Shown: one piece after another, positions 14,002 to 49,048 of the stretch
Layout: each line of letters starts with the position of its first letter
How positions within the stretch are numbered: position 1 is the stretch's first letter
Origin: Candidatus Daviesbacteria bacterium
Lineage (GTDB): Bacteria; Patescibacteriota; Microgenomatia; Daviesbacterales; UBA10151
Assembly (NCBI GenBank): GCA_016432425.1
Contig: CP066688.1
Location: 726,647 to 790,646, forward strand
Length of the DNA stretch: 64,000 bases
Reading direction: 5' to 3'
The notes under the pieces: generated by a model
What the model saw: only the letters and a program-made list of their open reading frames with translations
What the model was told of the DNA's origin: nothing
Databases searched by the model: none
Program-made: the position numbers and the translations under genes

Positions 14002-14111
14002 CAACCTCCGCTTCAAAATCACCAAACTACAGGTGATGGCGGACTTGGGTCTTAAAACGCTTCCCTCTTTAAAAGACTTGAGATTTTTAAGTGGAAGGAG
14101 GTGATTTATAG

Positions 14112-15752
14112 ATGTTAAAAAAATGGCAAAAGATTCCAGCAGCTATAGCTATGGGAGCAGCCACTCTGGCATTTGCTTTAACCCCAGTTTTAGCTGTTGA
14201 TGTAACTAGCACTAATGAGATGACTGGCTCAGGATCTACCAATACTACCACGACCGATGTCACCAATACCCAGACTGTGACTAATGATAATACCTCAGTA
14301 GTCACCAATACCTTTACTATCACTGCCACAACCGGCGGTAATAGCGCCTCGGACAATACCGGGGATGGGGAGGTTGGCAGCGGTGATGCAGCAAGTAGTG
14401 TCACTTCTGATACAACCAGTAATGTAAACACTACTGATTTGTCAACAGCAGGTACTATGTCGGTAGATTCCGCCAATTCAGTGACCGGTTCTTCCTCCAC
14501 TAATACAACTGACGTAACAGTGACCAACGATGCAACGGTGGTTAACACCAATGATCTGGAAGTCACTAATACGCTGGATTTGTTATCAGACACCGGAGGA
14601 AATACTGCAGATAGCAACACTGGTAATGGCACTGCCTCCAGCGGCGACGCATCTGCAAATGGGGATGTTTCTACAACCGGCAATATCAATGATACCACCG
14701 TATCAATGGCAGCTGATCCGATTGATGTCTCAAACGACACCACCGGATTTGACTCCTTAAATACTGTCTTGGTTGATGTCAGCAATACTGTGACTGTCAT
14801 TAATGATAATGCACCAATAGTGCCTACTACGATCACCAATGATATGAGTTTAACCTCACTCAGCGGTGGCAACAGCGCTGATGGCAATACCGGAGACGGT
14901 AGCGTTGATGGCGGTGGTGCGGATACAACAGTCAGCCTGGCAACAGATGTTAATTCCAACATGGTAGATATTGGGGCAGGAGGAGATTTGGATATTAATA
15001 TGTCCAATGACACTACCGGCTCAAGCTCAACCAACAGCATGGATGCATCTGTGACCAATGATCTGACTGTGGTTAACACCAATGATGCAGATATCCTAAA
15101 TGATATCAGTATGCTCTCTGATACGGGCGGAAATTCCGCATCAGGTAATACCGAGGATGGGTCTGTAGACAGTGGTAATGCCGGGTTAATGGCAGATGTG
15201 GCAACCACAGCCAATTCCAATGACGTGGATACCGGCGGAGCCTTTGGCGATATAGACGCCATGCTATCCAATAGCGTAACGGGCTCTTCATCAGACAACA
15301 CCATCGATTTGAGCGTTGACAACACCAATACTGTCTTAAATGACAATGTGGTGGATGTTGACAATTTGCTGGATATTATCGGATTGACCGGTGATAACAG
15401 CGCCGATGCCAACACCGGCGACGGTTCTGCCTCCAGCGGTGATGTGGATGTGGAAGCTGAGGTCACAACAGATGTCAACTTCAATACCACAGATGATATG
15501 GCAGCTGGGGACGTGGACGTGGATGAAGAAAATACCATGACCGGTTCCGGCTCAACCAATGACATCACGGATACGATTACCAATACCTTAACTCTGGTAA
15601 ATGACAATGATTCCGACGTCTTAAATGACGCCACCGGAACATTGGACACCGGCGGAAATAGCGCCGATGGCAACACTGGGGACGGTGAGGTGGCAACCGG
15701 GGATGTTGATTTGGAGTTAGACTTCACTACTAATGAAAACATGAACATGTAG
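14112..15752 (+). CDS. secreted Thr/Asn/Ser/Asp-rich tandem-repeat protein (about six ~88-aa repeats), no anchor
   Basis: Sec signal peptide MLKKWQKIPAAIAMGAATLAFALTPVLA preceded by SD GGAGGTGA. Recurrent core TGGNSA(S/D)(D/G)NTG(D/N)G within a longer repeat N..TGS.STN...D..VTN..TVVNTND. The antisense 559-aa ORF is a compositional shadow. Confidence 0.75.
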   Translation: MLKKWQKIPAAIAMGAATLAFALTPVLAVDVTSTNEMTGSGSTNTTTTDVTNTQTVTNDNTSVVTNTFTITATTGGNSASDNTGDGEVGSGDAASSVTSDTTSNVNTTDLSTAGTMSVDSANSVTGSSSTNTTDVTVTNDATVVNTNDLEVTNTLDLLSDTGGNTADSNTGNGTASSGDASANGDVSTTGNINDTTVSMAADPIDVSNDTTGFDSLNTVLVDVSNTVTVINDNAPIVPTTITNDMSLTSLSGGNSADGNTGDGSVDGGGADTTVSLATDVNSNMVDIGAGGDLDINMSNDTTGSSSTNSMDASVTNDLTVVNTNDADILNDISMLSDTGGNSASGNTEDGSVDSGNAGLMADVATTANSNDVDTGGAFGDIDAMLSNSVTGSSSDNTIDLSVDNTNTVLNDNVVDVDNLLDIIGLTGDNSADANTGDGSASSGDVDVEAEVTTDVNFNTTDDMAAGDVDVDEENTMTGSGSTNDITDTITNTLTLVNDNDSDVLNDATGTLDTGGNSADGNTGDGEVATGDVDLELDFTTNENMNM

Positions 15753-15762
15753 TGAAGATTTC

Positions 15763-15794: not shown

Positions 15795-15836
15795 GAATAA
15801 ATATTCTTCGAGCGAAGCGGGAAGTTACTTAAAATT

Positions 15837-18290
15837 ATGAATAAATTAGCTGTAAACTTTACTGCCTTAATATTAATAATTAGTCTAGGTTTAAATGGGC
15901 CTGTCGGGTTAGTATTGGCTCAAGAAGCTACTCCTAGTGCGGAAAGTTCCACTACCGAAAATTCCACCACCGGCGCTAATTCCACCAACACTGCCACTGC
16001 AACTGTAGACCAAACTTCTACCACCACTAACACCAATGATGCCATTGCCGTTAACACTACTGATGCACTTTCTGCCTCCGGGGATAATGCAGCTTTAGAT
16101 AACACGGGTGATGCTTCAATCACCACCAACACTGCTGCAACCTCTGCTACTACCTCAACTGAAACTAACCAAACTATTTGGGAACCAATGCCCTGGACTA
16201 CTTGGACAGGTGAGGGTGACTGGCAGACCAGAGCAGAAAACTCCACCACCGGTGCTGACTCTACCAACACCGCCACAACTAGTGTTTCACAAACAGATAC
16301 CCTAACCAACACCAACACTGCTGATGTGACAAACAGCGCTACTACTACTTCTTTAACAGGCGCAAATGTTGCCTCGGATAATACCGGCTCAGCCACTATC
16401 AGCACCGGGAATGCCTCCACCACCACCGCTACTCAAACTACTGCTAATACTAACATTGTTTCCTGGACAGGTGAGGGTGACTGGAGCAATCTGTGGAACG
16501 GTGAGGCAGTTAATTTTCTGACCGGTGCTAACTCCACCAATACTTCAAGTGTAGATTTTACTAAAGTGCTGGATGTTTTAAATGAAAACGGGGTGAATGT
16601 GGATAATTTGATTGCCTCCTTTGCCACCAGTGGAGATAATATTGCCTCGGATAATACCGGAAATGCCACTATTACTACCGGTAGCGCCTTAGTCCTTTCC
16701 ACTTTATTTAATCTGGTTAATACTAATATTTTTGGTACTGATATTATGGAGATTCTATACCAGGATATCTTCGGCACCTTTTCCGGAAATATTGACCTAT
16801 CTTTCGGCAACTTATTTTCTTTGCCCAACTTAATCTCCCAGCCTTTAACCCTAAATTCCAGCAACGATACCACTGGTTTTAACTCGGATAATACAGCCAC
16901 TACTGTAGGCAGTTTCACTGTGGATATCACTAATGATAATAGCGGTGTATTAAATAATGCCCTAGATTTATTTGCCATAACCGGCTCCAACACTGCCTCG
17001 GATAATACCGGAAACGTGCTAGTGGAGACAGGAAATGCGGAGGTTATGGTTAACTTAGTCAATTTCCTAAATACTAATATCTCCACCAATGAGCTTTACC
17101 TGGGGGTAATTAATGTCTTTGGGGACTGGACCGGGAATTTGATACTGCCTGAATATAATGGGGTAACCAGTAGTTCCCCGCTACCGCTACTTTCATCAAC
17201 AAAAAATATCCAAACAGGTGCTACTTCAGATAATACTGCTACTATGACCACAGATAACATTTTGACTGTAGATAATACTAACAATGCTACTGTTGATAAC
17301 GTATTCAACTTATTTGCTGAAACAGGAGGTAATAGCGCCTCTGATAATACTTTATCAGCCAGTGTTACCACCGGTTTGTCCCAAGTGGAAGCCAACCAGG
17401 CTACCTTTGCCAATACTAACGTGGTAAGTAATGCTCCCTGGTGGTTAGTTATAATTAACAATTTAGGCACTTGGGTACCGGTACTACTGCCTCCTTTAAA
17501 CATCGGGACACAGCTGGTTTTGGATTTAGATGATTTGGGAATGAATATTCCCAGCAGCAGTGAAACTTTAGATTTAACTGCCGCTAATAATCTTACCGGT
17601 AGTTTATCCAGCAATGAGGCAAGTGTCACTTTGAATTCTGAGACTAATATTACCAATACTAATGTGGGAACAATTATTAATGATGTTAGCGCTTTAGCTT
17701 CAACAGGAGGCAATGAGGCTAGTAGAAATACCGGATCGGCCACAATTGCCAGTGGTAATGCTTCTATCTTGGTTAATACTTTAAACTTTCTCAATACTAA
17801 TGTAATAGCACCCTCGATACTAATATCAATAGTTAATGTTTTCGGCAGCTGGATGGGAGATGTTTTAAGCTTTGGAACACAAGCACCTCTTCCGGCCGTT
17901 TCTGCCCCCGACCAGCCTATTGCCCAGGCAGAAAACTCGGGAAATATCACCAATGCTCCAGCCAGTCCTTCCAACCCCACCACATCTTCCGAGACAAATT
18001 CATCCCAGAGTTCACCAAGTGTAAATTTTAGTTCTGCCGCACCCCTTTCATCCGTGTCTAATAACCAAAGTACCACCCCTCCCAACTTTAATACCCAAAG
18101 CAATATTCAAAACCAAGAAGGCGAAGTTTTGGCATTTTATGAGGAAAAAGGTGGTGGGGACGGAGGATTCCCCTCTCAAGTAAATGAGGAAACACCGGAT
18201 ACAAAAGGAACTCTTATCCTGATGCTAATTGCCCTGACAGCTGTTTTGTTCATCTTAACAAGAGTTAGCAGAATAATTTCACGAAAATGA
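15837..18290 (+). CDS. secreted Thr/Asn/Ser-rich tandem-repeat protein with C-terminal TM anchor
   Basis: Signal peptide MNKLAVNFTALILIISLGLNGPVGLVLA. Repeats SGDNAALDNTGDASITTNTA, TGANVASDNTGSATISTGNAS, SGDNIASDNTGNATITTGSA, TGSNTASDNTGNVLVETGNAE, TGGNEASRNTGSATIASGNAS. C-terminal GTLILMLIALTAVLFILTRVSRIISRK. TGA stop overlaps the next ATG (ATGA). Confidence 0.75.
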   Translation: MNKLAVNFTALILIISLGLNGPVGLVLAQEATPSAESSTTENSTTGANSTNTATATVDQTSTTTNTNDAIAVNTTDALSASGDNAALDNTGDASITTNTAATSATTSTETNQTIWEPMPWTTWTGEGDWQTRAENSTTGADSTNTATTSVSQTDTLTNTNTADVTNSATTTSLTGANVASDNTGSATISTGNASTTTATQTTANTNIVSWTGEGDWSNLWNGEAVNFLTGANSTNTSSVDFTKVLDVLNENGVNVDNLIASFATSGDNIASDNTGNATITTGSALVLSTLFNLVNTNIFGTDIMEILYQDIFGTFSGNIDLSFGNLFSLPNLISQPLTLNSSNDTTGFNSDNTATTVGSFTVDITNDNSGVLNNALDLFAITGSNTASDNTGNVLVETGNAEVMVNLVNFLNTNISTNELYLGVINVFGDWTGNLILPEYNGVTSSSPLPLLSSTKNIQTGATSDNTATMTTDNILTVDNTNNATVDNVFNLFAETGGNSASDNTLSASVTTGLSQVEANQATFANTNVVSNAPWWLVIINNLGTWVPVLLPPLNIGTQLVLDLDDLGMNIPSSSETLDLTAANNLTGSLSSNEASVTLNSETNITNTNVGTIINDVSALASTGGNEASRNTGSATIASGNASILVNTLNFLNTNVIAPSILISIVNVFGSWMGDVLSFGTQAPLPAVSAPDQPIAQAENSGNITNAPASPSNPTTSSETNSSQSSPSVNFSSAAPLSSVSNNQSTTPPNFNTQSNIQNQEGEVLAFYEEKGGGDGGFPSQVNEETPDTKGTLILMLIALTAVLFILTRVSRIISRK

Positions 18291-19201
18291 GAAATAAGTT
18301 AATTAGTTTAATTATCTTGATCGGATTGACATTTGCTATACCCGGATCCGCGATGGCAGATACCGAAGTGACATCGTCTAATTCCTCCACCGGTGCTGAC
18401 TCTACCAATACCACCAGCTCAACTGTCACCAATGATAACTCTGTTGTCAATAATAATACGTCAGTAGTTACCAATACCATTGATATTACGGGCTCAACAG
18501 GAGCCAACAGCGCCTCAGCTAACACCGGTGACGGTACAGTTGGTAGCGGCTCAATAGACGGCAATGTGGAGGTAAGCAGTACCGATAATCAAAATACTAC
18601 CCTTTTGACAGATAGCGGCAGCATCAATATTACCCAACAAAATACAGAGACCGGCAGTAATTCAACAAATTCCTCCAGCATTAATGTCAGCAATATCAAC
18701 ACCGTTACCAACACTAATGATTCTGTCAAAGAAAATAACTTAATTGTCGATCTTTCCACCGGAGGCAATATAGCAGATGGAAATAGCGGTGGAAGCAGTA
18801 TCACCAGCGGAGATATCACATTTAATGTCGGAGTCACTAATGTGGATAATATCAATGAAACAAATATTGGCCCACCGGCTCCGGGAGGAGTTTCTCAGCC
18901 ACCTGAGGGCCAGGGAGGACAACAGCCGCCACCCCAAGTAGGTGGCGGAGGAGCAGCCATAGCACAAGCCCTGGGAGGGCCAACAGAGGTTACTTCTGCC
19001 CAACCTGCAGGTGAAATATTGGGAATTTCCTCCTTGCCAATTACCGGCCCCACAATAAATCTTTGGATTTTAGCGCTGCTGGCTGCCTCTGTGGCATTGT
19101 TAGGTTGGTTTATGATTAACCGCTCCTACGCTTGGGAAAAAGCCTTAATTAGAAAAAGACTCTCCTTTTCAATTAAAACCCCGCCGAGAAGGCGGGGTTA
19201 A
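18287..19201 (+). CDS. secreted repeat protein with LPXTG (LPITG) sortase cell-wall anchor
   Basis: Signal peptide with AMA-DT cleavage region. Repeats TGANSASANTGDGTVGSGS and TGGNIADGNSGGSSITSGD. Pro/Gly-rich stalk. C-terminal LPITG + hydrophobic segment + RKRL tail is a canonical sortase sorting signal. Confidence 0.75.
   Translation: MRNKLISLIILIGLTFAIPGSAMADTEVTSSNSSTGADSTNTTSSTVTNDNSVVNNNTSVVTNTIDITGSTGANSASANTGDGTVGSGSIDGNVEVSSTDNQNTTLLTDSGSINITQQNTETGSNSTNSSSINVSNINTVTNTNDSVKENNLIVDLSTGGNIADGNSGGSSITSGDITFNVGVTNVDNINETNIGPPAPGGVSQPPEGQGGQQPPPQVGGGGAAIAQALGGPTEVTSAQPAGEILGISSLPITGPTINLWILALLAASVALLGWFMINRSYAWEKALIRKRLSFSIKTPPRRRG
19179..19197. terminator. GC-rich hairpin overlapping the operon stop codon (possible bidirectional terminator)
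   Basis: CCCCGCC-gagaa-GGCGGGG at the end of 18287-19201. It sits between convergent genes (DUF378 on the minus strand). No clean T-run on the plus side. Confidence 0.35.
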
Positions 19202-24797: not shown

Positions 24798-24841
24798 GAT
24801 ATTATATTCGAGAGTAAGTTCATAATCTGTCCAAAACACAT

Positions 24842-24912
24842 TGCGGGATCGTCTAACGGTAGGACAACAGACTTTGGATCTGTTTATCATGGTTCGAATC
24901 CATGTCCCGCAG
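24842..24912 (+). tRNA. tRNA-Gln (anticodon TTG)
   Basis: Acceptor TGCGGGA/TCCCGCA; D-arm GTC-TAACGGTAG-GAC; anticodon stem ACAGA/TCTGT with loop CTTTGGA; T-arm CATGG-TTCGAAT-CCATG; discriminator G. No CCA. Confidence 0.8.
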
Positions 24913-24999
24913 CCCATTCGACTCTGGTTCGACTACTTCGACTGTGCTCAGTACGAGTTCGCTCACCATCGCTCAGGGCTATAGCCGAATTATATAATT
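24910..24999 (+). repeat. 90-bp perfect direct repeat, copy A, starting in the last 3 nt of tRNA-Gln
   Basis: CAGCCCATTCGACTCTGGTTCGACTACTTCGACTGTGCTCAGTACGAGTTCGCTCACCATCGCTCAGGGCTATAGCCGAATTATATAATT is identical to 26110-26199, offset exactly 1200 bp. Confidence 0.9.
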
Positions 25000-25059
25000 G
25001 AATTAATTCAGGATTTAAGTCGAATGGTCCTGAGTGAGCGAAGCGAATCGAAGGATAAC

Positions 25060-25332
25060 ATGCCCTATTTTGTTTATATTCTTAGAACCTCCTCTCAGAC
25101 ACTTTATATTGGACAAACTAATAATCTAGAAAAAAGGTTAAAAGAACATCAAAATAAAACTAGTAAATCTGCTAAGTACATTAAATACTTTGATTCATGT
25201 CAACTGGTTTATACGGAAGAATACCCTACAAGAATTGAAGCCATGAGGAGAGAATTTCAGCTAAAAAAATGGACAAAAGCCAAAAAAGAGTCACTAATAA
25301 GTGGTAATATCAAGCTGTTAAAAAAACTATGA
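25060..25332 (+). CDS. GIY-YIG nuclease-superfamily protein (YhbQ/UPF0213-like)
   Basis: MPYFVYILRTSSQTLYIGQTNNLEKRLKEH is a canonical GIY-YIG core. The 12 codons the ORF track places upstream (MVLSERSESKDN) are encoded by a copy of the dispersed ~30-nt repeat, so the start is more likely Met-13. Confidence 0.7.
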   Translation: MPYFVYILRTSSQTLYIGQTNNLEKRLKEHQNKTSKSAKYIKYFDSCQLVYTEEYPTRIEAMRREFQLKKWTKAKKESLISGNIKLLKKL

Positions 25333-25380
25333 ACTTACTAATATTCGATTCTAGGTTGAAATGTTAGGAAAAATCCCGAG

Positions 25381-25409
25381 GTGTCAACCTAATCCACCCC
25401 CGGGGTGGA
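25381..25409. repeat. hairpin repeat GTG(T/C)CAACCTAATCCACCCC(C)GGGGTGGA, copy 1 (terminator-like)
   Basis: Stem TCCACCCC/GGGGTGGA, located just downstream of the convergent GIY-YIG and DedA-like genes. Second copy at 26282-26310. Confidence 0.6.
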
Positions 25410-25468
25410 AAATGGAATTACTTCACTATGTGGGTTTCTAGAAAATGAAGAATAAATAATAAGCACTT

Positions 25469-26044
25469 TTAAAAAGAATGGGCTGCAATTATTACAATAA
25501 ATATCCCTATCGTGTTCAAAAGAAAGGTAAGTAGTAAAAATTGCCAGTTTTTTAACTTGGATGCTCCCAATAATCCTATCCCAACCTCGTCGGGGAATGG
25601 CGAAGCAATTATAAATGCTCCAAAGAGTGGCAAAAACCAAGCAAAGTACGGAGTTTTGAATAACTTAACAAGTAAATTACCTCCATTACTAAGGAATAGC
25701 GGTTTTAGTTCGTCAAATACTCTATCCCTTAAAAACCTAAATATTAAATAATCACCAATAACTGCCCCAGCCCCTGCAAATATTGCTACTAATAGAGGAT
25801 TTAAAGTATCAGCTAGAAAGAACAATAATACTGCTGCAGGGGCGACTGTAAAAATAGAAACAAATAGAATACCCCCGATAAATGCCCCAATATAACCAAA
25901 ATTACCAACAGTAGAAATTATATTCTTTGCAAATGGGTGGTCAGCAAAGATAAAGAATATAACCAAGCTTAAAACTAGTAATGCAGTATTTTTATAGTTC
26001 CAGTTTGTCCATTTTGAAGTGACATGCAAAATTTTTTCTTCCAT
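25469..26044 (-). CDS. polytopic membrane protein with DedA/VTT-like motif
   Basis: 191 aa, 5-6 TM segments. GAFIIASPFPDEVGIGLLGASKL resembles the DedA (F/L)PxxPG(E/D) re-entrant loop motif. Confidence 0.35.
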   Translation of the reverse strand: MEEKILHVTSKWTNWNYKNTALLVLSLVIFFIFADHPFAKNIISTVGNFGYIGAFIGGILFVSIFTVAPAAVLLFFLADTLNPLLVAIFAGAGAVIGDYLIFRFLRDRVFDELKPLFLSNGGNLLVKLFKTPYFAWFLPLFGAFIIASPFPDEVGIGLLGASKLKNWQFLLLTFLLNTIGIFIVIIAAHSF

Positions 26045-26109
26045 AATTATACTCTAGCATAATTCCATAAGTAGTCTTTATAATAAGTTCCAACATAGTC
26101 AACCAGTGC

Positions 26110-26199
26110 CAGCCCATTCGACTCTGGTTCGACTACTTCGACTGTGCTCAGTACGAGTTCGCTCACCATCGCTCAGGGCTATAGCCGAATTATATAATT
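26110..26199 (+). repeat. 90-bp perfect direct repeat, copy B
   Basis: Identical to 24910-24999. Confidence 0.9.
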
Positions 26200-26281
26200 T
26201 CTCTATTTATAGAAGCTAACTTCACCATTTCTGTTACCAGAGATGAGGTTAGAAATTACTTATTATAGGTAAGTTCCTTTG

Positions 26282-26310
26282 GTGCCAACCTAATCCACCC
26301 CCCAGGTGGA
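26282..26310. repeat. hairpin repeat, copy 2
   Basis: GGTGCCAACCTAATCCACCCCCCAGGTGGA; paired with 25381-25409. Confidence 0.6.
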
Positions 26311-26363
26311 TTGAAATTACAATATACCTATCTGAGAATAGGTTGAAAACTTGACTAACTGCC

Positions 26364-30596: not shown

Positions 30597-30616
30597 CGGG
30601 GACTAGTTCATCGGTA
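30597..30616 (+). repeat. 20-nt duplicate of the tRNA-Pro 5' end (CGGGGACTAGTTCATCGGTA)
   Basis: Identical to 30706-30725, the first 20 nt of the intact tRNA-Pro 109 bp downstream. Confidence 0.85.
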
Positions 30617-30684
30617 AGCAGAGCTTGCCATCTGGTGATGGTAAGCAGAGCTTGCCATCTGGTGATGGTAAGCAGAGCTTGCCA
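30613..30684 (+). repeat. tandem 27-nt repeat GGTAAGCAGAGCTTGCCATCTGGTGAT, 2.7 copies
   Basis: Copies at 30613-30639, 30640-30666 and partial 30667-30684. Contains the 12-mer AAGCAGAGCTTG and the hairpin CCATC-tggt-GATGG. Flanked by inverted repeats GACTAGTTCATCGG / CCAATGAACTGTC. Confidence 0.85.
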
Positions 30685-30705
30685 ATGAACTGTCGGATTA
30701 TATTT

Positions 30706-32740: not shown

Positions 32741-32895
32741 CTCAGTTTCGCCAAAGGTAGGCGGCGCGGTCCTTTTCGCGCCGCCTCTTGTCCGCTCGGC
32801 CTTCGGCCTCGCTCTATGTATTTTTTGCTAAGACAGAAAGACGAATGCGCGCGATTTTTTTATTTATAGTCCGCCTATGGCGGACAGAAAAACAA
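32741..32895. other. GC-rich hairpin cluster in AT-rich intergenic DNA (candidate structured ncRNA or terminator stack)
   Basis: CGCCAAAGG family motif; AGGCGGCGCG-gtcctttt-CGCGCCGCCT; GGCC-ttc-GGCC; T-run; AATGCGCGCGAT (TGCGCGAT-like); GTCCGCC-tat-GGCGGAC. Confidence 0.4.
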
Positions 32896-35759: not shown

Positions 35760-35865
35760 TTTAACCGGCGGCTGGTGCCAAGTTACAATTTGGGCTTTGC
35801 AGAGCTCTGCGGCCCCCCTCCCGCGCAGAGCCAACCCTCCGTCCGCTTTGCGGACTCCCTTTCGG
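35760..35865 (-). other. GC-rich structured tail following the tRNA-like element (candidate ncRNA)
   Basis: About 65% GC versus about 38% background. Hairpins GTCCGC-aaa-GCGGAC and CTCTGCG-cgggaggggggc-CGCAGAG on the minus strand. Confidence 0.35.
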
Positions 35866-35936
35866 AGCGGGTGAGGAGAATCGGACTCCCGTATCCAGTT
35901 TGGAAAACTGGTGTTCTACCATTGAACTACACCCGC
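35866..35936 (-). tRNA. tRNA-Gly (anticodon TCC)-like gene with noncanonical T-loop
   Basis: Minus-strand acceptor GCGGGTG/CACCCGC; D-arm GTTC-AATGGTA-GAAC; anticodon stem CCAGT/ACTGG with loop TTTCCAA; T-arm GGGAG-TCCGATT-CTCCT (position 55 is C, not U). Confidence 0.5.
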
Positions 35937-39416: not shown

Positions 39417-40031
39417 ATGAAGGCAAAAAAACCTAACAAACGCTTATGGCTTACGCTTTTAATGATTGTTGCAATTCCTGTGTTGTTAGTAACTACATAC
39501 ATTATTTACCTTAATGCAATCGAAGCTAATCCTCATCCAATAGTCCCAAGTCAATCTTCTATTGTAGAAACAAATGGTGGTTACAAAAGATATACAAATA
39601 ACCATTTTAAATACTCTTTTGAATATCCCATTGATTACAAATTGGTTGAAAATATGGAATCTTATAAAGATGGTTTTTATAGACAAACTGTACTTGGTAA
39701 AGATGAGAATTATGACACACCTAATACAAAATTCATTTCAGGATCAGTTATCTCTTTTTACTTTTACACAGATCGAACGATGACTCAAGAAATTGATAAA
39801 ATAAAAAAAGACAATGAGGGATCACAATTTAATGATGTACAATTTAAAGGAACAAATGTAGTTGAATTAAAATTTCAGAGGTATCCTCAATCCAGGACTT
39901 TATTTATCCCAAGACCAGATGGATTCCTGGTAATAAGATTTGGCCCTGGTGAACAAACAAGTTTGGATTCACTGGTCCAATACACAAAAGACTTTAATAA
40001 TATTTTAGATTCTTTTGACCTTCTAAATTAA
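39417..40031 (+). CDS. hypothetical membrane-anchored protein
   Basis: N-terminal signal-anchor LWLTLLMIVAIPVLLVTTYIIYL, then a globular domain. No motif. Confidence 0.4.
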   Translation: MKAKKPNKRLWLTLLMIVAIPVLLVTTYIIYLNAIEANPHPIVPSQSSIVETNGGYKRYTNNHFKYSFEYPIDYKLVENMESYKDGFYRQTVLGKDENYDTPNTKFISGSVISFYFYTDRTMTQEIDKIKKDNEGSQFNDVQFKGTNVVELKFQRYPQSRTLFIPRPDGFLVIRFGPGEQTSLDSLVQYTKDFNNILDSFDLLN

Positions 40032-40090
40032 TAGTTAGTATCTTAGTCGAGGATATAATTAATTTTACCTAATGACCTCTTGGCGAAAGT

Positions 40091-40161
40091 ATCCTTCGAC
40101 TCACTTCACTCGCTCAGGACTTAGCTTTACTGTTAGGGAGCCCTTCGACTTCGCTCAGGAT
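40091..40161 (+). repeat. two tandem copies of the dispersed ~30-nt repeat ATCCTTCGAYTC...CTCAGGAC
   Basis: ATCCTTCGACTCACTTCACTCGCTCAGGAC (40091-40120) and CCTTCGACTTCGCTCAGGAT (40142-40161). Related copies at 25027-25056 (reverse orientation), inside the 90-bp direct repeats, and a 20-nt exact match inside uvrA (48576-48595). Confidence 0.75.
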
Positions 40162-40414
40162 AAACGATTCTGATGATTCATTTTGGCCCGCTTCGCCAGC
40201 GAGGCGAGCTACAGGGATCGAAACCTTATTGCATAGCAAGAGCTTGTTCAGTCTCTCTTCTTAAGTGCTACAATTAATTCATGTCCGCCAAAAATAAAAT
40301 CAACATAGGTTCTCTTTGGAAATGGCATATAAAGCAGATCAAGCATTTGTACTTAATTTCTCAAATAGATTTAAATCAGACAGAAAATTGCCGAGACAGT
40401 TGAAAATTGTGAGT

Positions 40415-40448
40415 GTAAAAAAGCCCCGTATGGTAAACATACGGGGTA
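40415..40448 (-). terminator. intrinsic terminator for the minus-strand substrate-binding-protein gene
   Basis: Minus-strand reading: CCCCGTATG-tttac-CATACGGGG followed by CTTTTTT. Confidence 0.7.
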
Positions 40449-40577
40449 AGTGAGTATATTAAATCAAAAATAAGCTCATTTGTCAATGTCTTATAGTTAA
40501 AATTAGTTAAGAAAAGTTAACGTACTTAACTATGTATTTTTTAGCCCAAATAAATAGGCATATCAAGACATGAATTT

Positions 40578-41915
40578 TCAGTTAGACTTAGCAAATTGGG
40601 GCAGTTGCAGGGGTAAAACTTGGTTTAAATTAGTTTCTGCTTTTTTAAGATAAACTACGCTGTATTTGGGGAAATAAAGAAAAGTAGCAGGGGAATCCTC
40701 CAAGAGCACTTTTTGAAAATCAATATATGCATTTTTGCGTTCTCCTGCATTACTTAACTTCCTCCCATCCTCTAAATCCTTATCAGCCCTGGCTTGAGAA
40801 TATTTAGTGGGATTAGTTTTATCCTGGGTAGAATGCCAGAGAAAATATTGATCCGGGTCAGTGGGAATATTTTGTACAACTAACAAGGCTTGAAAATTTT
40901 GGGCAATCCCCGACTCCGCCCTCATTACCACATTCAACCCTAAACTTTTCCAAGCTGAAACTACTCTTTCCCCCACTATCTCCAGTTGAGGAGTGACTGT
41001 CAAAATAATTTGTTTATCCAAAGAGCTGATCCCGGAGTTTTTGGCTCTATTTAAGGCTTCTTTGGCCTGATCAGCATCATTTAAATAATCTTTTAAATCA
41101 GTTCCGTAGGCCCAGGAGAAAGGAGGGATGGGTGATTTGGCAACTGTTTCTCCGCTTATTTCCGGGGCAGAGAAACTCAAAGCCTGACGCAGCGATCGGT
41201 TTCCCAAAAACGGGTCTTTGGTGTTATACAAAATGGTCACTATTTTGGAATAATCAGTAGCTTGCTTGGTAGAAATAAACGGACCGGATAAATTTTGATT
41301 AGAGCTAACACCGAACAAACTTTGAACTTCCCCCAATGAAAAACCTGTCAGGGCAGTTTTTTCATTGGGATAAAAACGGATGATTAACTCCGGCAATTTA
41401 GCATCAAGCGGAGACAGTGTTACCTTGGTCAGAAAAATACGGCTTTTTTCTACTGCAGTTAAGCGATAAGGCCCGGTTCCTAAACGGGTGCCCTTTTTAA
41501 AAATGGGACTAACTAGCAGTGAAGGAAAAGGTGAATAGGGCTCTTTTAATTTAAACTCCACGGTTTTTTCATCAGGAAAACTCACCTCTACATTGGGAAT
41601 ATTAATGTCCAAATCCCCGGATTTTAAATTTAAGTTGTCAGCCCACCTAAGGTTATCTTTTAACTTAAATTTAAAGGTAGTAGCATCATTATTGACCTCC
41701 CACCCGGCAGCTAAATCTCCCACTGTCCGGCCTGTTTGGTCAGTTTTGGTCAGCCCTTGTGAGAGCAGTTTAGTTACCTCCAGGGGTAAATCTGCCTCTT
41801 GATAAGTGCCGACTAAACCTTCAGAGAGGATCTTTTTACCCCATAAAATATTAAATTGAATTTGGAAAATTGTTAGTAAAACCAAGGCTGTTACCACCCC
41901 TAAAAAAATCCACAT
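40578..41915 (-). CDS. ABC transporter substrate-binding protein, family 5 (peptide/nickel type), membrane-anchored
   Basis: SBP_bac_5-like N-terminal region (GTYQEADLPLEVTKLLSQGLTKTDQTGRTVGDLAAGWEV..) after a TM helix. Start set at the internal Met (MWIFLGVV) because the longer ORF overlaps secG. Confidence 0.6.
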   Translation of the reverse strand: MWIFLGVVTALVLLTIFQIQFNILWGKKILSEGLVGTYQEADLPLEVTKLLSQGLTKTDQTGRTVGDLAAGWEVNNDATTFKFKLKDNLRWADNLNLKSGDLDINIPNVEVSFPDEKTVEFKLKEPYSPFPSLLVSPIFKKGTRLGTGPYRLTAVEKSRIFLTKVTLSPLDAKLPELIIRFYPNEKTALTGFSLGEVQSLFGVSSNQNLSGPFISTKQATDYSKIVTILYNTKDPFLGNRSLRQALSFSAPEISGETVAKSPIPPFSWAYGTDLKDYLNDADQAKEALNRAKNSGISSLDKQIILTVTPQLEIVGERVVSAWKSLGLNVVMRAESGIAQNFQALLVVQNIPTDPDQYFLWHSTQDKTNPTKYSQARADKDLEDGRKLSNAGERKNAYIDFQKVLLEDSPATFLYFPKYSVVYLKKAETNLNQVLPLQLPQFAKSN

Positions 41916-42645: not shown

Positions 42646-43962
42646 TTAATTCTCGTCAAAAGTAGCTTTACGGTGGAGGGAACGATAAAAAGTAATAGCA
42701 AAACGGTGGGATTCATCACGCAGCCGTTGCAGTAGCTTTAAAGCCGGGGAAGATTTAGGTAATTTGGTGACTGTCCCGTCTGGTTGGTAGAGCCACTCCA
42801 TTCTTTTAGCTAAACCATAAGTAGGTATCTGGAGGTGGGCGGCCAGTAACTGCTCATGAATAGCCCGGACTTGGGCTATTCCCCCATCAATAATTATCAA
42901 ATTAGGCAAGGGCCAATTATTTTTTAATCTTCTTCTCATCATTTCTGCGTGCATCCCCACGTCATTGGGTTTACTCGGTCCGCCAGCTGGCGGACTGATT
43001 TTAAATTTACGGTACTGACTTTTATCTATTTCCCCGTTAGTTAATACCACCATGGAGCCGGTGGCAAAACGGCCCTGGATATTGGAAACATCATAACCTT
43101 CAATCCGCTCGGGCAGTTGCTTTAAATTTAAAGCTTGCTGCAAATTCTCCAGGGCTTTTTGCCTTTGTTCTTCTAAAAAATTGGGATTTTCTAAATAAGA
43201 CTGGACACGATTGGCTTGGAGCAAATAGTTGATACCATCAATCATTTTTTTGGCTTTCTGTGCAGCTTCAAAATTCTCTGCTTTGGCAAAAGAGGTCATT
43301 TGCTTATTTAAGTCCCTGATTAAACTAAAATGTTTACCCTCCATGAATTTAATAAAGTTAGCAATGTTCTTTTTATAATTTTTAGGGGAAATTTCTCCAG
43401 TACAAACTCCCGGACAAAGACCTAAATGGTAATAAAAACAGGCTTTGCCTGTTTTTGAGATAACTTCGTTATCATAAAAACCCGATGAACGTTTGGTTAT
43501 TTTTGGAGGATTACTGCACCAGGGGAAAACCCGTCTTAGCGATTTTAAAGTAGCTTTAACAGTGGTACTAGAGGGAAAGGGGCCGAAATATTTTAAAGAG
43601 CCTGCCAAGTCTTTTTTTCTGGCAGTTAAAATTTTAGGATAATCTTCCTTGGTCACTCTGATATATAAATAATCTTTATCATCGACTAGCCTAATATTAA
43701 ACTTAGGCAAATATTTTTTAATTAAGTTTGCTTCTAAAATTAGGGCTTCCAATTCTGACTCTACCAAGATAGTTTCCACCCCGGCAATTTCCCCTACCAG
43801 AGTAGCGGTTTTAAGATCATGGGAGGAGTTAAAATAACTAGCCACCCGAGCTCTTAGATCAATTGCTTTCCCCACATAAATTACACCACCGCTTTTATCT
43901 TTAAATTGATAAACTCCGGGACGGCGTGGAATCTGGCTAGAGGTAATAAAAGCAGGAATCAC
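42646..43962 (-). CDS. uvrC: excinuclease ABC subunit C, short form lacking the C-terminal (HhH)2
   Basis: N-terminal GIY-YIG (PRRPGVYQFKDKSGGVIYVGKAIDLRARVASYF), a UVR-like region, and a C-terminal RNase-H-like endonuclease region (IEGYDVSNIQG...IIDGG). 438 aa versus about 600 for canonical UvrC. Confidence 0.8.
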   Translation of the reverse strand: MIPAFITSSQIPRRPGVYQFKDKSGGVIYVGKAIDLRARVASYFNSSHDLKTATLVGEIAGVETILVESELEALILEANLIKKYLPKFNIRLVDDKDYLYIRVTKEDYPKILTARKKDLAGSLKYFGPFPSSTTVKATLKSLRRVFPWCSNPPKITKRSSGFYDNEVISKTGKACFYYHLGLCPGVCTGEISPKNYKKNIANFIKFMEGKHFSLIRDLNKQMTSFAKAENFEAAQKAKKMIDGINYLLQANRVQSYLENPNFLEEQRQKALENLQQALNLKQLPERIEGYDVSNIQGRFATGSMVVLTNGEIDKSQYRKFKISPPAGGPSKPNDVGMHAEMMRRRLKNNWPLPNLIIIDGGIAQVRAIHEQLLAAHLQIPTYGLAKRMEWLYQPDGTVTKLPKSSPALKLLQRLRDESHRFAITFYRSLHRKATFDEN

Positions 43963-43989: not shown

Positions 43990-45915
43990 TTACTTCAAAT
44001 TATTCTTCCCCACTTTTTTGGTGCTGGCGGGTAGTGATTCCTGTAGCGGAAGAGCTCTTCGTTTGTAAATGTATCGACTTAAAATTACCAGATAAATAAT
44101 TAAAATCGCTCCCACTAAAACAAAAACAGCAATGGGGGCAAATTGAGATTGTAAAAAAGGTTTAACCAAAACTTCTTTATTATATTTTTGGCCGGTAATA
44201 TTTACAGTCACAGTATCAGCATAATTGTCAAACAAAGATTTGGTTCTCACGTTATAAATAAATTCAGCTGAACCAAAGGCAGGAATGGGTCCTAAATTTT
44301 GATTTGTAGCTTCCAAAATATTTAAATTATTGGCAAAAACACTAAAGGGACTGGATTGTTTTAAACCATTGCCATTGTTGGAGATAATTACTTTAATTTG
44401 TCCGGGGAATCCTGCCAAAATGGGGTTACCAGCTTGAATATCTACTGATAAATTAGGTTTGGCAATAAAATCTATCTCGGAGAGGGTGACTTTGACATCA
44501 TGGGACTCTACCCCGTCATATTTATATGATCCCGCCGCGGCGGGACTCTGGGAAGATAACCCCTTCACCGCAAAAGCAAAATGATTTAAATCAAATTGGG
44601 AAAAATAATCCACTCCTCCGGTAGTAGATTCCCAGGTAGGGTCGATCATCACCCAACCGCGACTGTCATCCCAAAACTCAGGCCAGGCATGTAAAATATC
44701 TTTACTTAAAGAAAGAGGCCGCAAAGCCGGATTGGAAGTATAGGCAAAACCATTAATTTCTCGGGCCGGTACCCCGGCAGCCCGGGAGAGGGCAATAAAT
44801 AAATCAGTATATTCCATGCAAACTGCCGAGTTAGGATTATTTAAGGCAGTGACTGCCCCCAAACGTTCGATAATATTGGAACTTAAGCGCGAGGGGTCAT
44901 ATTTTAAGTAAGAGGCCACCCAGCGATGAACTGCGCGGGCCTTTTCTAAATTAGTAGCTGGACTCTCTCCTAAAATCTCCGTTAATTTAAGTTTAATGGC
45001 CGGGTTATCAACCTCCCAATACTTATCCGCTAGCAGGTATTTAGATTTTAGACTTGAATCTAATTTGGGGTTTTTAACTTTAGAGCGGATATAAAGTTTG
45101 GTTGAACCGATTATTTTAACTTGGAGTTGTTGGCTTCTGCTGAGGCGGTACCAGGCCAGGTAATTTCCGTCACTGTCAACTGTCACATTAAGAGGTTGGG
45201 GTTCCATCCTGGTAAAAATTACATCCTGGTAGGCAGTATCCGGAGGTAGGGCAATGTTGGTGACAACCGGGACCAGATTTTTATTTTCTAGATTGTAAGT
45301 TAGATCAAAATCGAATAATTGGAAGGAGCCAAAATTAGCCAATACGCCACTATTTTCCAGCTGGGATTTATCAAAAGTTAAAAATCTTTTGCCTCCCACT
45401 AAAGTTTGGCTTTTAGGAGTGGGGGTAATGGCGGTGGGGTCACCAAACTCCACCGGTACAGACAAAGTTAAGTTATAAGATTTAAGGTTAGAGGTAGAAG
45501 TGACCTTGGGGACAGAAACTTCCCATACTTTACCTTGTTTCTGGGCAAAATCAGTGGATTTAAAAGACAGAGTCCAGGGCAATTCTTTGCCAAGTCCGGC
45601 CACTTGTTGGTTAAATTTTACTGCAATGGTGGTATTAGTTCCGGATTGGTTAGCAGTAGTTTTTAAGGGGCCGGAAGGGTCAGAAGCGGCAATATCAGTA
45701 ATTTTGGTAGCCCCAATGGTTAATTTAAATTCAGAAGCATAATATTGAGTGGTTAAATTTTTGAGGTTAATTTTTTCGGTAACAGTAGTTACCCCATCTG
45801 TACCCACGTCATAAGTGACATCGTAAGTAGTAGCAAACTCTTCTGCAGCAAAAGCTTTTGGGACAATTAAAACAGTAAGGGTCAAAAAAATAGCTACAAA
45901 AAACTTTTTTAACAT
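43990..45915 (-). CDS. secreted transglutaminase-like cysteine-protease-domain protein with C-terminal TM
   Basis: Signal peptide. Core AVCMEYTDLFIALSRAAGVPAREINGF...HAWPEFWDDSRGWVMIDPT (Cys-His-Asp transglutaminase-like). C-terminal TM FAPIAVFVLVGAILIIYLVILS. Co-directional and closely spaced with uvrC. Confidence 0.7.
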   Translation of the reverse strand: MLKKFFVAIFLTLTVLIVPKAFAAEEFATTYDVTYDVGTDGVTTVTEKINLKNLTTQYYASEFKLTIGATKITDIAASDPSGPLKTTANQSGTNTTIAVKFNQQVAGLGKELPWTLSFKSTDFAQKQGKVWEVSVPKVTSTSNLKSYNLTLSVPVEFGDPTAITPTPKSQTLVGGKRFLTFDKSQLENSGVLANFGSFQLFDFDLTYNLENKNLVPVVTNIALPPDTAYQDVIFTRMEPQPLNVTVDSDGNYLAWYRLSRSQQLQVKIIGSTKLYIRSKVKNPKLDSSLKSKYLLADKYWEVDNPAIKLKLTEILGESPATNLEKARAVHRWVASYLKYDPSRLSSNIIERLGAVTALNNPNSAVCMEYTDLFIALSRAAGVPAREINGFAYTSNPALRPLSLSKDILHAWPEFWDDSRGWVMIDPTWESTTGGVDYFSQFDLNHFAFAVKGLSSQSPAAAGSYKYDGVESHDVKVTLSEIDFIAKPNLSVDIQAGNPILAGFPGQIKVIISNNGNGLKQSSPFSVFANNLNILEATNQNLGPIPAFGSAEFIYNVRTKSLFDNYADTVTVNITGQKYNKEVLVKPFLQSQFAPIAVFVLVGAILIIYLVILSRYIYKRRALPLQESLPASTKKVGKNNLK

Positions 45916-46030: not shown

Positions 46031-49000
46031 TCAAATTAAAATCTTAGCTAAATACTGTCCAGTGTAAGAAGATTTTATTTTGGCAATTTGGGCAGGAGTT
46101 CCCTCTGCTATCACTCTCCCTCCTTTATCTCCACCCTCTGGGCCCAAATCTATTACCCAATCAGTGTTTTTAATGACATCTAAATTATGCTCAATCACGA
46201 TGACCGTATTACCAAAATTAACTAATTTTCGCAGTATCGTCAGCAGCCTTTCAATGTCAGCAAAATGCAGCCCGGTAGTAGGCTCATCCAAAATATAAAC
46301 TGTCCGGCCGGTTTGCCGCTTAGACAGCTCGGAGGAAAGTTTAATCCTTTGGGCCTCACCCCCTGATAAAGTAGGGGCTGGTTGGCCCAAACGGATATAA
46401 CCCAGTCCTACATCAAAAAGAACTTGCAGTTTAGTTTTAATTACCGGAATATTTTCAAAAAACTTTAAGGCTTCCTCGACAGTCATATCCAAAACTTGAG
46501 CAATATTTTTTTCTTTAAATTCTATCTCCAAAGCTTCCCGGTTGTATCTTTGCCCGCTACAAGTTTCACAAGTAACGTAAATATCCGGCAAAAACTGCAT
46601 TTCAATTTTAATCTGGCCTTCTCCCTCACAAACCTCGCACCTGCCCCCTTTGACATTAAAAGAAAATCTGCCCGGTCTATAACCCCTAACTTTAGCCTCC
46701 GGACTATTGGCAAATAAATCCCTGATGGCAGTAAAAGCTCCGGTATAAGTAGCTGGATTAGACCGGGGGGTCCGCCCAATAGGACTTTGGTCCACTAAAA
46801 CTACTTTGTCCACATATTCAATGCCTTCGAGAGCTTTAAATTGGCCGGGTTTTTCCCTAGACCGATAAATTTTTTGAGCTAGGGCCCGATATAAAACATC
46901 ATGGATTAAAGTGGACTTACCGGATCCAGACACCCCAGTAATACAAACAAATTGGCCTAAAGGGAAATCTACATTAACATTTTTTAGATTATGTTCACAT
47001 GCACCTTTAAGTGATAATTTTCCTAAATTCACCCGTTCTCTTTTTAAATTATCGTCTACTTTAACCTGTTTGGCTCCGGATAAATACAGGCCAGTTAAAG
47101 AATTTTTATTCTTTTTAATTTCCATTGGAGTTCCCTGGGCGACAATTTTTCCTCCATGTTCCCCGGCTCCTGGCCCAATTTCGATCATTAAATCAGCATT
47201 TTCCATGGTTTCAGCGTCATGTTCGTTAACGATGACAGTGTTGCCTAGATCCCGAAGCTTTTTTAGTGTTTCAATCAACCGGGTATTATCACGTTGATGC
47301 AAGCCAATGGAAGGTTCATCTAAAACATATAACACCCCTGATAAACCTGAACCTATTTGGGAAGCCAGCCTGATTCTTTGGGATTCCCCTCCGGCCAAAG
47401 TCATGGCCGGCCGATCCAAAGTTAAATAATCCAACCCCACATCCATTAAAAACTGCAGGCGGGCTTTGATCTCTTTGAGTATGGGGGTAGCAATTTGGTT
47501 TTCTCGAACCGACAAAATCATCCCGTCATTGTTTTCAACAGATTGTTTCGCTTCGCTCGCAATGACATGGGGGGTAAGTTTCTTAATCCATGCTAAAGCC
47601 TGTTCAATTGACTGACTGGTCACCTCAGCAATATTTAATCCATTTATTGTCACAGATAAAGCTTCTTCTTTTAACCTGCCCCCGTGACATTTAGGGCAAA
47701 TTTCTTTGACCATATACTTTTCAATTTCTGCTTTGACAAAATCTGATTCCGATTCCTGGTATCTTTCTTTTAGATAATTAACTAAACCCTGGAAACTGGA
47801 ATAAAAATGGGTCCAGCGGCCCTGCCTGTTTCTACCTTCTACTTTAAACTGGTCCCCTCCGGCCCCAAAAAGTAATATTTTGCGGGCCTTCGGGTTCAAT
47901 TGCCCTAATCTGGTATTTAAATCAAACCCGTGCTCCTTGCCCACAGCTTCTATTAACCTGGTAAACCAAGTTTCATGGGTAGATAACTTAGACCAGGGTA
48001 AAATTCCTCCCTCGTTAATAGATAAAATGGGATTCAAAATTGCCTCCGGGTCTATTTCCAAGAGAGATCCTAACCCGGTACAGGTAGGACAAGCTCCATG
48101 GGGTGAGTTAAAAGAAAATAGCCTGGGTTCAATCTCCGAGAGAGCAATATTATCCACCGGACAGGCAAACCTCTCGGAATAAAGATGGTCAGTCATTTTC
48201 TTGGGTTCGGCTGGAAACTCTAAGGAGGCATCCAAAACATCAGCCACAATTACTGCGCCTTCTCCTAGTTTTAAAGCAGTTTCAATACTTTGGGAAAGTC
48301 GGGATAAAAAGGCTGGATCACTGGTAGATTTTTTTTCTATGACCAAACGGTCTACTGCCACATCAATAGAGTGTTTATTAGTTTTAATTAAAACCAAATC
48401 ACCCGCTCCGCGGGCGGAGCGAGGCGAGTCTGTTAAATCTCGGACCTGGCCATCAACCCTTACTTTAGAAAAACCCTTTTTTAAAAGATCATTAAATAGT
48501 TGTGAATACTCCCCTTTACGGTCTTTGACTATGGGAGCTAAAATCATTACTCTGCGACCCTTTTTAGAATGAGATCCTTCGACTTCGCTCAGGATGACAT
48601 TCGTCATTTGCTCAACGCTCATGCGGGAAATTTCCCGTCCGCAAATAGGACAATGAGGATGGCCAATCCGGGCAAAAAGTAACCTAAAATAGTCATAAAT
48701 CTCCGTGGTAGTGCCAACAGTGGAACGGGGGTTATGAGAGACTCCTTTTTGGTCAATGGAAATAGCCGGAGAAAGCCCTTCAATATAGTCCACATCCGGC
48801 TTGTCCATCACTCCCAAAAACTGGCGGGCATAGGCAGACAGTGATTCTACATAACGCCGCTGGCCCTCTGCATAAAGGGTATCAAAAGCTAAAGAAGATT
48901 TACCTGAACCGGATAGCCCGGTAAAAACAATCAATTTGTTTTTAGGTAGCTCTAAATCAATATTTTTAAGATTGTGTTCCCGGGCACCTTTAATGATTAT

Positions 49001-49048
49001 TTTGTCAGTAGTAGCCATGGTGAATGGATATTTTAGACTATTTGGCAA
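46031..49048 (-). CDS. uvrA: excinuclease ABC subunit A
   Basis: Two ABC modules: Walker [11 protein letters not shown] and [10 protein letters not shown]; signatures [12 protein letters not shown] and [11 protein letters not shown]; Zn-finger Cys clusters. 1005 aa. Confidence 0.95.

Follow-up and report, generated by a model that had tools for sequence, protein, structure and literature searches.

To our knowledge, very small dispersed repeats are known from few lineages only, and the means by which they move is unknown. A comparable case comes from the mitochondrial DNA of fungi, whose GC clusters and double-hairpin elements are short, GC-rich sequences in an AT-rich genome, lying between genes as well as in frame within them. 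Here, we analyse a short GC-rich repeat, with the working name fam1, in a stretch of 64,000 nucleotides from Candidatus Daviesbacteria bacterium (Patescibacteriota; contig CP066688.1, forward-strand positions 726,647 to 790,646). This whole stretch is called the window, and coordinates given without another name are positions in it. The names fam2 and fam3 stand for two further small GC-rich families, and an L followed by a number labels a compared relative, ortholog or metagenome locus. The best reading of our results is that fam1 is a dispersed repeat resembling REP (repetitive extragenic palindromic) sequences, the Rickettsia palindromic elements (RPEs) and the small dispersed repeats (SDRs) of cyanobacteria, and that it is linked to a gene for a small GIY-YIG nuclease. 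On balance we lean towards the view that fam1 is a very small dispersed repeat with a GIY-YIG module as its regular home, that its solo copies lie between or inside genes, and that its spread may be initiated by the nuclease.

Among the described systems, the SDRs come close in size and behaviour. Elhai and colleagues reportedly found them also within genes, nested in one another and present or absent between orthologous loci, with the mobilising enzyme unknown. The families SDR1-8 of Nostocaceae measure 21-27 nt and are suspected to be mobile (Elhai et al. 2008, Genome Res 18:1484, doi 10.1101/gr.074336.107, as cited in PMC3116915, PMC2884548 and PMC5861425), and the last of these sources reports that none was found outside Nostocaceae. 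The RPEs (Ogata et al. 2000) are described in PMC10969869 as selfish elements of about 150 bp which occur in frame in unrelated housekeeping genes and also between genes. REP sequences carry GTAG/CGTC tags, according to PMC3733652. Full-text literature searches returned no description of the fam1 motif, nor of such repeats in Patescibacteria, and the motif was not described in the literature on GIY-YIG proteins with REP or on the COG2827/UPF0213/YhbQ family. A preliminary description of this DNA had considered small repeats to be undescribed for such genomes; our searches likewise found no description for Patescibacteria, whereas close analogues exist elsewhere (REP/REPIN, RPE, SDR).

The fam1 family and its copy inside uvrA

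The fam1 core consists of TCCTTCGAYT, a stretch of 0-10 nt and CGCTCAGGA, 20-30 nt in total. Its ends, TCCT and AGGA, are complementary, and direct reading of the sequence finds no stop codon in five of its six reading frames. The 64-kb window, a part of an 820-kb genome, holds six to seven copies, and its GC content is about 39%, so that GC-rich repeats stand out as islands. Its UvrA protein is 100% identical to one from a metagenome-assembled genome of Candidatus Daviesbacteria. The features needed first are the following (ORF, open reading frame).

40091-40120, plus strand: fam1 long variant ATCCTTCGACTCACTTCACTCGCTCAGGAC, a solo intergenic 30-mer, 60 nt past the stop of ORF 39417..40031
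40141-40166, plus strand: fam1 short variant CCCTTCGACTTCGCTCAGGATAAAC of the 'taaac' sub-type, solo and intergenic
46031-49048, minus strand: uvrA (Pfam UvrA_inter and UvrA_DNA-bind), host gene of three repeat-derived segments
48569-48607, minus strand: nucleotide-conserved 39-nt block ATGACGAATGTCATCCTGAGCGAAGTCGAAGGATCTCAT in uvrA, 13 residues, holding the fam1 core at 48575-48594

The 20-mer CCTTCGACTTCGCTCAGGAT has two exact copies in the window, at 40142-40161 and 48576-48595, and no third match was found there even when 3 mismatches were allowed. The second copy lies in frame in the minus-strand ORF 46031..49048, where its translation, ILSEVEG, makes up residues 152-158. None of 100 dinucleotide-preserving shuffles yielded a match to the 20-mer. 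The preliminary description had proposed a dispersed family of about 30 nt with this in-frame copy inside uvrA, and had judged the match unlikely by chance; all of its member coordinates hold, as do the in-frame copy and the argument against chance. The two window copies are of different sub-types, the intergenic one reading ...AGGAtaaac and the uvrA one ...AGGAtgac, so that what they have in common is a conserved core, and neither is a copy of the other. The 'taaac' sub-type also occurs in six metagenome loci (L095, L119, L147, L159, L162 and L184). An inverted relative of the 30-mer lies at 25027-25057 and is 87% complementary to 40091-40120.

Both solo copies are located in the spacer 40032-40577, between convergent genes and after an SBP gene; the gene order uvrA, transglutaminase-like gene, uvrC, holin, SecG, SBP is kept in relatives. 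They do not have the form of an intrinsic terminator, as no T-run follows the copies at 40091-40166, and a separate classical hairpin with a T-run can be read directly at 40416-40446 on the minus strand. A search of the whole window against Rfam gave no family at gathering thresholds and no coverage of any copy, and in 39900-40700 and 24700-26450 only sub-threshold chance matches were obtained. Folding of fam1 units is weak (-3.5 to -8.3 kcal/mol, z +0.9 to -1.2), with only the 4-5-nt ends pairing. Two ideas were set aside: a GCGAAGC-type mini-hairpin with tandem G·A pairs is unsupported by standard energy models and would be no more than a lead, and a tRNA-derived origin, suggested by the resemblance of the halves TTCGA and GCTCAG to the T-loop and D-arm consensus, has tRNA adjacency as its sole support.

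We compared the uvrA gene of the window with 120 orthologs of 74-88% identity. Loop 1, in which the block lies, is hypervariable; (I)LSEVEGS or a close variant is found in 22 of the 120, scattered over the neighbour-joining tree, and the two closest orthologs (87-88% identity) lack the block. Solved and distant UvrA proteins show gaps opposite all three GC-rich segments of the window protein. In seven orthologs the nucleotides of the block are nearly constant. The window, L201 and L202 share the stretch GTC ATC CTG AGC GAA GTC GAA GGA TCT without any difference; L208 matches it as far as it goes (the final TCT codon is missing there), and L203, L205 and L207 differ by one base. For the seven orthologs, codon identity at identical amino acids is 96.5% in the block (165/171) vs 47.5% over the whole gene (7559/15927), and the block ranks top among 902 sliding windows. 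The frozen stretch extends over 39 nt, ATGACGCAAGTCATCCTGAGCGAAGTCGAAGGATCTCAT, and its borders are abrupt.

Transfer of a larger tract was also considered as the source of the block. Nearly throughout the first 300 codons scanned, the uvrA of the window is nearest to that of L204 (80% nucleotide identity vs 69-74% for the others). At codons ~135-165 the identity to L204 drops to 0.53, with 0.78-0.80 for the carriers of the short block and 0.64 for L206, which has a long variant. Since the excess identity of the carriers over the sister L204 is limited to codons ~135-165, large-tract recombination was rejected. The long fam1 variant of L206, ATCCTGAGCGAACGAAGTGAGTCGAAGTAT, occupies the same loop 1, a decayed copy (QSVVEG) is found there in L005, and further decayed versions read SGVEG, SKVEG, SEVKG and SAVEG. 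In a fourth uvrA loop (a linker, around residue 635), at least 10 orthologs have fam1 in another reading frame, as HPERAKRVEGS and variants. The AlphaFold model of UvrA has a mean pLDDT (predicted local distance difference test score) of 76.6 and eight segments below 50, three of which are repeat-derived (residues 148-150 in the 39-nt block, 198-207 in a fam2 insert and 484-500 in an insert containing fam3). Given the frozen block, its sharp borders and its absence from the two closest orthologs, we conclude that the uvrA block is a short patch, gained or replaced at the nucleotide level and then decaying, and not a conserved UvrA motif.

It had been suggested in the preliminary description that orthologs be checked, as codon conservation shared with distant taxa would speak against its interpretation. 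The copy is absent from distant UvrA as well as from the two closest orthologs and behaves as an acquired patch, and its nucleotides are frozen whereas the flanking synonymous sites have diverged; that objection therefore falls away. For related reasons we consider it almost certainly wrong to see in the block a coincidence, a codon-level conservation of UvrA or an artefact of assembly or binning. It is true that the window comes from a metagenome-assembled genome, and E. coli-type UvrA presumably has a loosely similar peptide at the position of the block. However, the shuffles and the gap in solved UvrA proteins speak against coincidence, the silent sites of the flanks have diverged and those of the block have not, the same block is found in independent ENA, NCBI and Logan assemblies, and the motif occurs in finished replicons of cultured bacteria.

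The constancy of the block could also mean that it is a functional cis-element under nucleotide selection, inherited vertically with many losses: at a domain boundary it might act as a Shine-Dalgarno-like pause site (GAAGGAU), or else it might form an mRNA structure or bind a protein. Such selection would fit 39 nt that are almost invariant in seven orthologs of only ~70-74% overall nucleotide identity, the Shine-Dalgarno-like AGGA and the complementary UCCU ends in the motif, and the location of the block at the start of the UvrB-interaction domain. Nevertheless, this seems to us quite improbable. The two closest orthologs and ~80% of the UvrA proteins of Daviesbacteria lack the block and have unrelated or other repeat-derived loops; decayed versions exist, and L206 has the long variant in the same loop; the core is mostly intergenic elsewhere, and its predicted fold is weak.

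The GIY-YIG module and fam1 in other bacteria

The remaining fam1 copies of the window surround a small nuclease gene; (+) and (-) denote the orientation of a copy.

24841-24916, plus strand: tRNA-Gln, with a (+) fam1 copy as its 3' trailer
24917-24980, plus strand: tRNA-proximal fam1 copies and partial copies TTCGACTCTGG TTCGACTAC TTCGACTGTGCTCAG .. TTCGCTCACCATCGCTCAGGGC, in direct repeat 1
25027-25056, minus strand: fam1 long variant, gene-proximal copy, reading GTCCTGAGTGAGCGAAGCGAATCGAAGGAT on the plus strand
25060-25332, plus strand: small YhbQ-like GIY-YIG nuclease gene, 90 aa, candidate partner enzyme of fam1
26117-26180, plus strand: the same fam1 copies as at 24917-24980, inside direct repeat 2 (26110-26199)

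The module thus runs in the order tRNA-Gln, (+) copies, AT-rich spacer, (-) copy, GIY-YIG gene, and it is also present in the related Daviesbacteria L210, L211 and L214. The AGGA of the gene-proximal copy stands 5 nt before the GIY-YIG ATG (25060), at Shine-Dalgarno distance, and the (+) and (-) copies at the gene pair in a long predicted hairpin (z -2.2). The protein has the catalytic domain alone, with no DNA-binding domain, and is 34% identical to E. coli YhbQ. The preliminary description regarded the N-terminus MVLSERSESKDN of the longer ORF 25024..25332 as artefactual. NCBI indeed calls the 90-aa form, but some close homologs lack an internal Met and there must translate the repeat-encoded peptide, so that this N-terminus may not be purely an artefact. 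Of the GIY-YIG homologs or 50%-identity representatives, 110 have an N-terminus extended by 12 aa or more, and in 64 of these the (-) copy is translated, with an average of 1.8 and a maximum of 6 in shuffles. The resulting peptides are LSERSESK, PERSRR, VLSVVEG and similar ones, and nested fam1 variants such as LSERVVREIEPRSESK occur as well. Some ORFs extend back over the (+) copy into the tRNA (..LVRIQARQ PFDSLRSL .. ANVLSVVEGQ MPYF..). The cluster names of the diverse GIY-YIG representatives give almost no taxonomy.

Two perfect direct repeats of 90 nt, 24910-24999 and 26110-26199, contain TTCGACTGTGCTCAG and TTCGCTCACCATCGCTCAGG. They begin within the final 7 nt of tRNA-Gln and enclose a unit of 1.2 kb, on which the GIY-YIG gene lies together with ORF 25469..26044 (191 aa, without a family match); L210 and L211 have a single copy of the 90-nt repeat. 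Together with the 3' end of tRNA-Gln, the repeats look like an att-type recombination site. Just 5' of the tRNA, at 24549-24797, there is an 82-aa ORF that weakly matches EF-Tu domain 2 (E 5e-5) and may be a gene fragment.

Outside the clade, the exact 19-mer CCTTCGACTTCGCTCAGGA was found in at least 120 metagenome contigs, with a GC content of 0.31-0.70 among the contigs listed. The conserved part is approximately RTCCTTCGACTTCGCTCAGGAY followed by 4-5 sub-family bases (tgac, caggc, cgaacgg or taaac). In 118 metagenome copies conservation stops about 2 nt before and about 5 nt after the core, and covariation is limited to the T/A end pair. As conservation ends at the core borders, fam1 is not part of a larger conserved RNA, a possibility that was also considered. 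Metagenome copies stand alone, form inverted pairs with a spacing of 25-50 nt or are arranged in tandem arrays (L083, L144), and in low-GC contigs they lie mostly outside long ORFs. tRNAs are enriched near the 19-mer: of the 12 tRNAs at the 120 listed loci (at least 120 in all), 10 are at most 400 nt away. The 19-mer is also present in 46 viral contigs. The preliminary description had further proposed that the repeat might originate from uvrA. As the same 19-mer is present in contigs whose GC content ranges from 31 to 70%, and also in Alphaproteobacteria, Cyanobacteria and Bacteroidota, this origin is unsupported; of that interpretation as a whole, the real family and the acquired uvrA copy remain.

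Finished replicons carry the motif as well, namely those of Sphingomonas parapaucimobilis (7-22 places per replicon), Sinorhizobium meliloti, Phocaeicola and Planktothrix agardhii. In S. parapaucimobilis, GGGCTTCGACTTCGCTCAGCCTGAACGG, ~30 nt and CCGTTCAGGCTGAGCGAAGTCGAAGCCC precede an annotated GIY-YIG gene, ending 49 nt before its ATG, and a third fam1 copy overlaps the 3' end of the gene. In Planktothrix agardhii the GIY-YIG gene is preceded by an array of a fam1 variant in both orientations, and in Methylobacterium by a related element. A Planktothrix restriction-modification gene of MmeI type contains tandem in-frame fam1-like units (VILSETKDLS, DSSQAQNDN). On the P. agardhii plasmid NZ_LR882964.1 (13848-19131; L264/L265), the MmeI-type gene is followed by ~320 nt, a small GIY-YIG gene and the drmA gene of DISARM. 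In Patescibacteria, Sphingomonas and Planktothrix, the (-) copy is found upstream of the ATG at a distance of 3-50 nt.

The same adjacency might be explained in the opposite direction, with fam1 as a passive landing pad or recombination hot spot for a GIY-YIG cassette. The repeats would then be spread by a Y1/RAYT-type transposase (RAYT, REP-associated tyrosine transposase), by template switching or by short-patch gene conversion, and the adjacency would reflect target choice. In L209 and L215 a restriction-modification island replaces the upstream DNA from the last bases of the tRNA on, and this junction at the tRNA 3' end beside the (+) copy is of the kind expected for a landing pad. We think this explanation unlikely, though it is the strongest of the alternatives. 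Across three phyla the (-) copy keeps its position and orientation relative to the GIY-YIG start; its AGGA precedes the ATG by 5-50 nt, translation of the copy is frequent, and so conserved a placement argues for functional coupling rather than random insertion into a repeat.

Further small repeats and a possible rival mobiliser

The window has several other small repeats, some of which share their locations with fam1. The two other uvrA inserts, the fam2 copy at 40187-40207 and the conserved GIY-YIG link were absent from the preliminary description.

48401-48427, minus strand: fam2 in-frame insert TCGCCTCGCTCCGCCCGCGGAGCGGGT in uvrA, 27 nt, encoding SPRSARGAG
47519-47575, minus strand: fam3-containing in-frame insert in loop 3 of uvrA, 19 residues, core GTCATTGCGAGCGAAGCGAAACAATC at 47541-47566
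40187-40207, minus strand: solo intergenic fam2 copy TCGCCTCGCTGGCGAAGCGGG, a hairpin (fold -14.2 kcal/mol)
42975-42992, minus strand: perfect 18-nt palindrome GTCCGCCAGCTGGCGGAC, a four-residue in-frame insert (PAGG) in uvrC, of a family other than fam1

In loop 2 of UvrA the fam2 point is uninterrupted in 109 of the 120 orthologs, which read DL(T/S)(D/E)|D(L/F)VLIKTNK, and the other 11 have fam2-type inserts of 6-23 aa at exactly this one point. L205 and L208 carry there the 21-nt fam2 form TCGCCTCGCGGCGAAGCGGGC, which differs by 1 nt from the solo copy at 40187-40207. With fam1 and fam2 side by side, the spacer at 40.1 kb holds two families that are both present in uvrA. The insert TCGCCTCGCTCCGCCCGCGGAGCGGGT folds strongly (-23.2 kcal/mol, z -3.6). 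A further fam2 copy was found in L201 at 7978-7997, inside a called uvrB gene. Relatives of the fam3 core are present in L002 and L201, and loop 3 of uvrA has different repeat-like inserts in different lineages. The PAGG insert of uvrC is absent from 11 of 12 orthologs.

These repeats bear on the landing-pad explanation. L206 has, near uvrA and in the region 4787-5490, a Y1 (IS200/RAYT-like) transposase gene, in a locus with an assembly gap of Ns, and the gene is flanked by hairpins ACACCTnnnnAGGTGT (ACACCT..AGGTGT); doublets of this hairpin form the in-frame inserts HLRGV..HLGGV in loop 3 of uvrA in other Daviesbacteria. The strong hairpin of fam2 without target duplication is likewise what chemistry of the IS200/IS605 type would give, and the replacement of loop sequence at equal length points to conversion. 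Yet the repeat that flanks the Y1 gene of L206 belongs to another family and not to fam1, and no Y1 gene was found among the eight window ORFs scanned.

Other repetitive sequences of the window are as follows. The palindrome TCCCGCCGCGGCGGGA (16 nt, at 44525-44557) in the transglutaminase-like gene was considered as one more insert and rejected, because the orthologs are equally long. Three tandem 27-nt units GGTAAGCAGAGCTTGCCATCTGGTGAT lie in the trailer of tRNA-Leu(taa) at 30613-30693, with diverged copies at 11029-11076. GC-rich hairpin clusters (GTCCGCAAAGCGGAC, CTCTGCG..CGCAGAG, CTCCGCCAAAGGCGGAG) lie between genes at 35792-35873, 32748-32816, 4677-4704 and 4385-4415, several of them in tRNA trailers (Gly-tcc, Phe), and appear to be other small repeat families. 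The region 14087-19201 contains very long, internally repetitive ORFs (14112..15752, 15837..18290 and 18287..19201) with many diverged direct repeats and with long antisense ORFs overlapping them, and is probably a repeat-rich surface protein locus.

A nuclease-linked repeat beside the described systems

Taking REP/RAYT and free-standing homing endonucleases as models, we infer that the GIY-YIG enzyme may mobilise fam1. It would nick at or near a fam1 element, and repair would copy the element to new sites. Of the copies arriving within genes, only those in frame and in tolerant, disordered loops would survive, and they would be selfish passengers filtered by selection rather than functional parts of UvrA. 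The uvrA copy would then be a solo fam1 element, the 39-nt patch having presumably replaced the original loop sequence in this lineage, and fam2 and fam3 may have done likewise in two further uvrA loops.

Several observations weigh against this reading. In loop 1 of uvrA the motif replaces sequence at equal length instead of adding to it, and replacement without change of length fits conversion better than transposition. The P-type ATPase of L087 (Ga0265292_1027544) contains the exact 19-mer as LVLSEVEGF in a segment of native length, its homologs presumably having a segment of similar length there, which likewise suggests overwriting rather than insertion. No target-site duplication is visible, and the exact point at which fam2 is inserted, D|insert|D, shows none either. 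The lone fam1 unit forms no significant hairpin (z -0.5 to -1.2), so that structure-specific recognition is not obvious, and the Y1 transposase of L206 is another possible mobiliser in the clade. A GIY-YIG ORF is nearby in only 2 of the 120 listed metagenome loci with the exact 19-mer, these loci being short, and the motif is absent upstream of the GIY-YIG gene checked in S. paeninsulae. Finally, the UvrA tree is star-like, which leaves the count of independent gains uncertain.

Compared with the described systems, fam1 combines the behaviour of SDRs and RPEs with the repeat-plus-enzyme architecture of REP/RAYT, and it fails defining features of REPs, RPEs and MITEs (miniature transposable elements with inverted repeats). 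It is of about the same size as the SDRs and, like them, is present or absent among orthologs, nested, tandem and found inside genes. It differs in spanning phyla and in its link to a GIY-YIG gene, SDRs having no described partner gene; this comparison is by description, not by consensus sequence. With the RPEs it shares in-frame location, as three segments of uvrA and one of uvrC are in frame, correspond to gaps in solved UvrA or are absent from most orthologs, and in uvrA lie in loops of low pLDDT. However, RPEs are palindromic and confined to Rickettsia, whereas fam1 is 20-39 nt long (the elements treated here 20-57 nt), weakly self-complementary and found across phyla, and in loop 1 of uvrA it takes the place of existing sequence and is not just added; this distinction, too, is drawn by description.

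The architecture recalls REP/REPIN and RAYT: a short, GC-rich dispersed repeat with many solo or paired copies, a single-copy enzyme gene flanked by repeats and, in high-GC genomes, inverted pairs ~25-50 nt apart. In contrast to those systems, the partner of fam1 is a GIY-YIG nuclease and not an HUH Y1 transposase, the unit is no strong palindrome and lacks the GTAG/CGTC tags of REPs, and copies are also in frame within genes. Homing endonucleases (phage Seg proteins, relatives of I-TevI) offer a parallel in the GIY-YIG gene adjoining a conserved DNA site and in the break-induced copying that we propose, but here the protein has 90 aa and no DNA-binding domain, and it is the 20-30-nt site that spreads most, not the gene. 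A MITE would exceed 50 bp, derive from an insertion sequence and have terminal inverted repeats and a target-site duplication, but fam1 has just 4-5-nt complementary ends and measures 20-39 nt, a duplication is not seen at the fam2 insertion point, and a parent insertion sequence was not found. The GC clusters of fungal mitochondria are organellar and of unrelated sequence, and the likeness is by description only.

A bolder form of the proposal would take fam1 and the ~90-aa YhbQ-like GIY-YIG nuclease as a pan-bacterial analogue of REP/RAYT: a mobile unit of 20-30 nt, copied by the nuclease, with the gene always behind a pair of sites and with in-frame overwriting of essential genes. We regard this as possible but doubtful. 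If it were true, the mobile unit would be among the smallest known, and the widespread and poorly understood YhbQ/COG2827 family would gain a function; if the link is causal, fam1 would represent a new class of nuclease-driven mini-element. The tiny GIY-YIG gene, with the motif before it in three phyla including the culturable Sphingomonas and Planktothrix, is a testable candidate enzyme. In addition, uvrA offers a clean natural experiment: in more than 100 orthologs of this one conserved gene, a 39-nt block and a 21-27-nt hairpin either occur or are missing at the same points. It also shows that, in the streamlined genomes of the candidate phyla radiation, core repair proteins have surface loops remodelled by elements of this kind, with consequences for alignments, phylogenies and annotation, of which false N-termini and spurious ORFs are examples.

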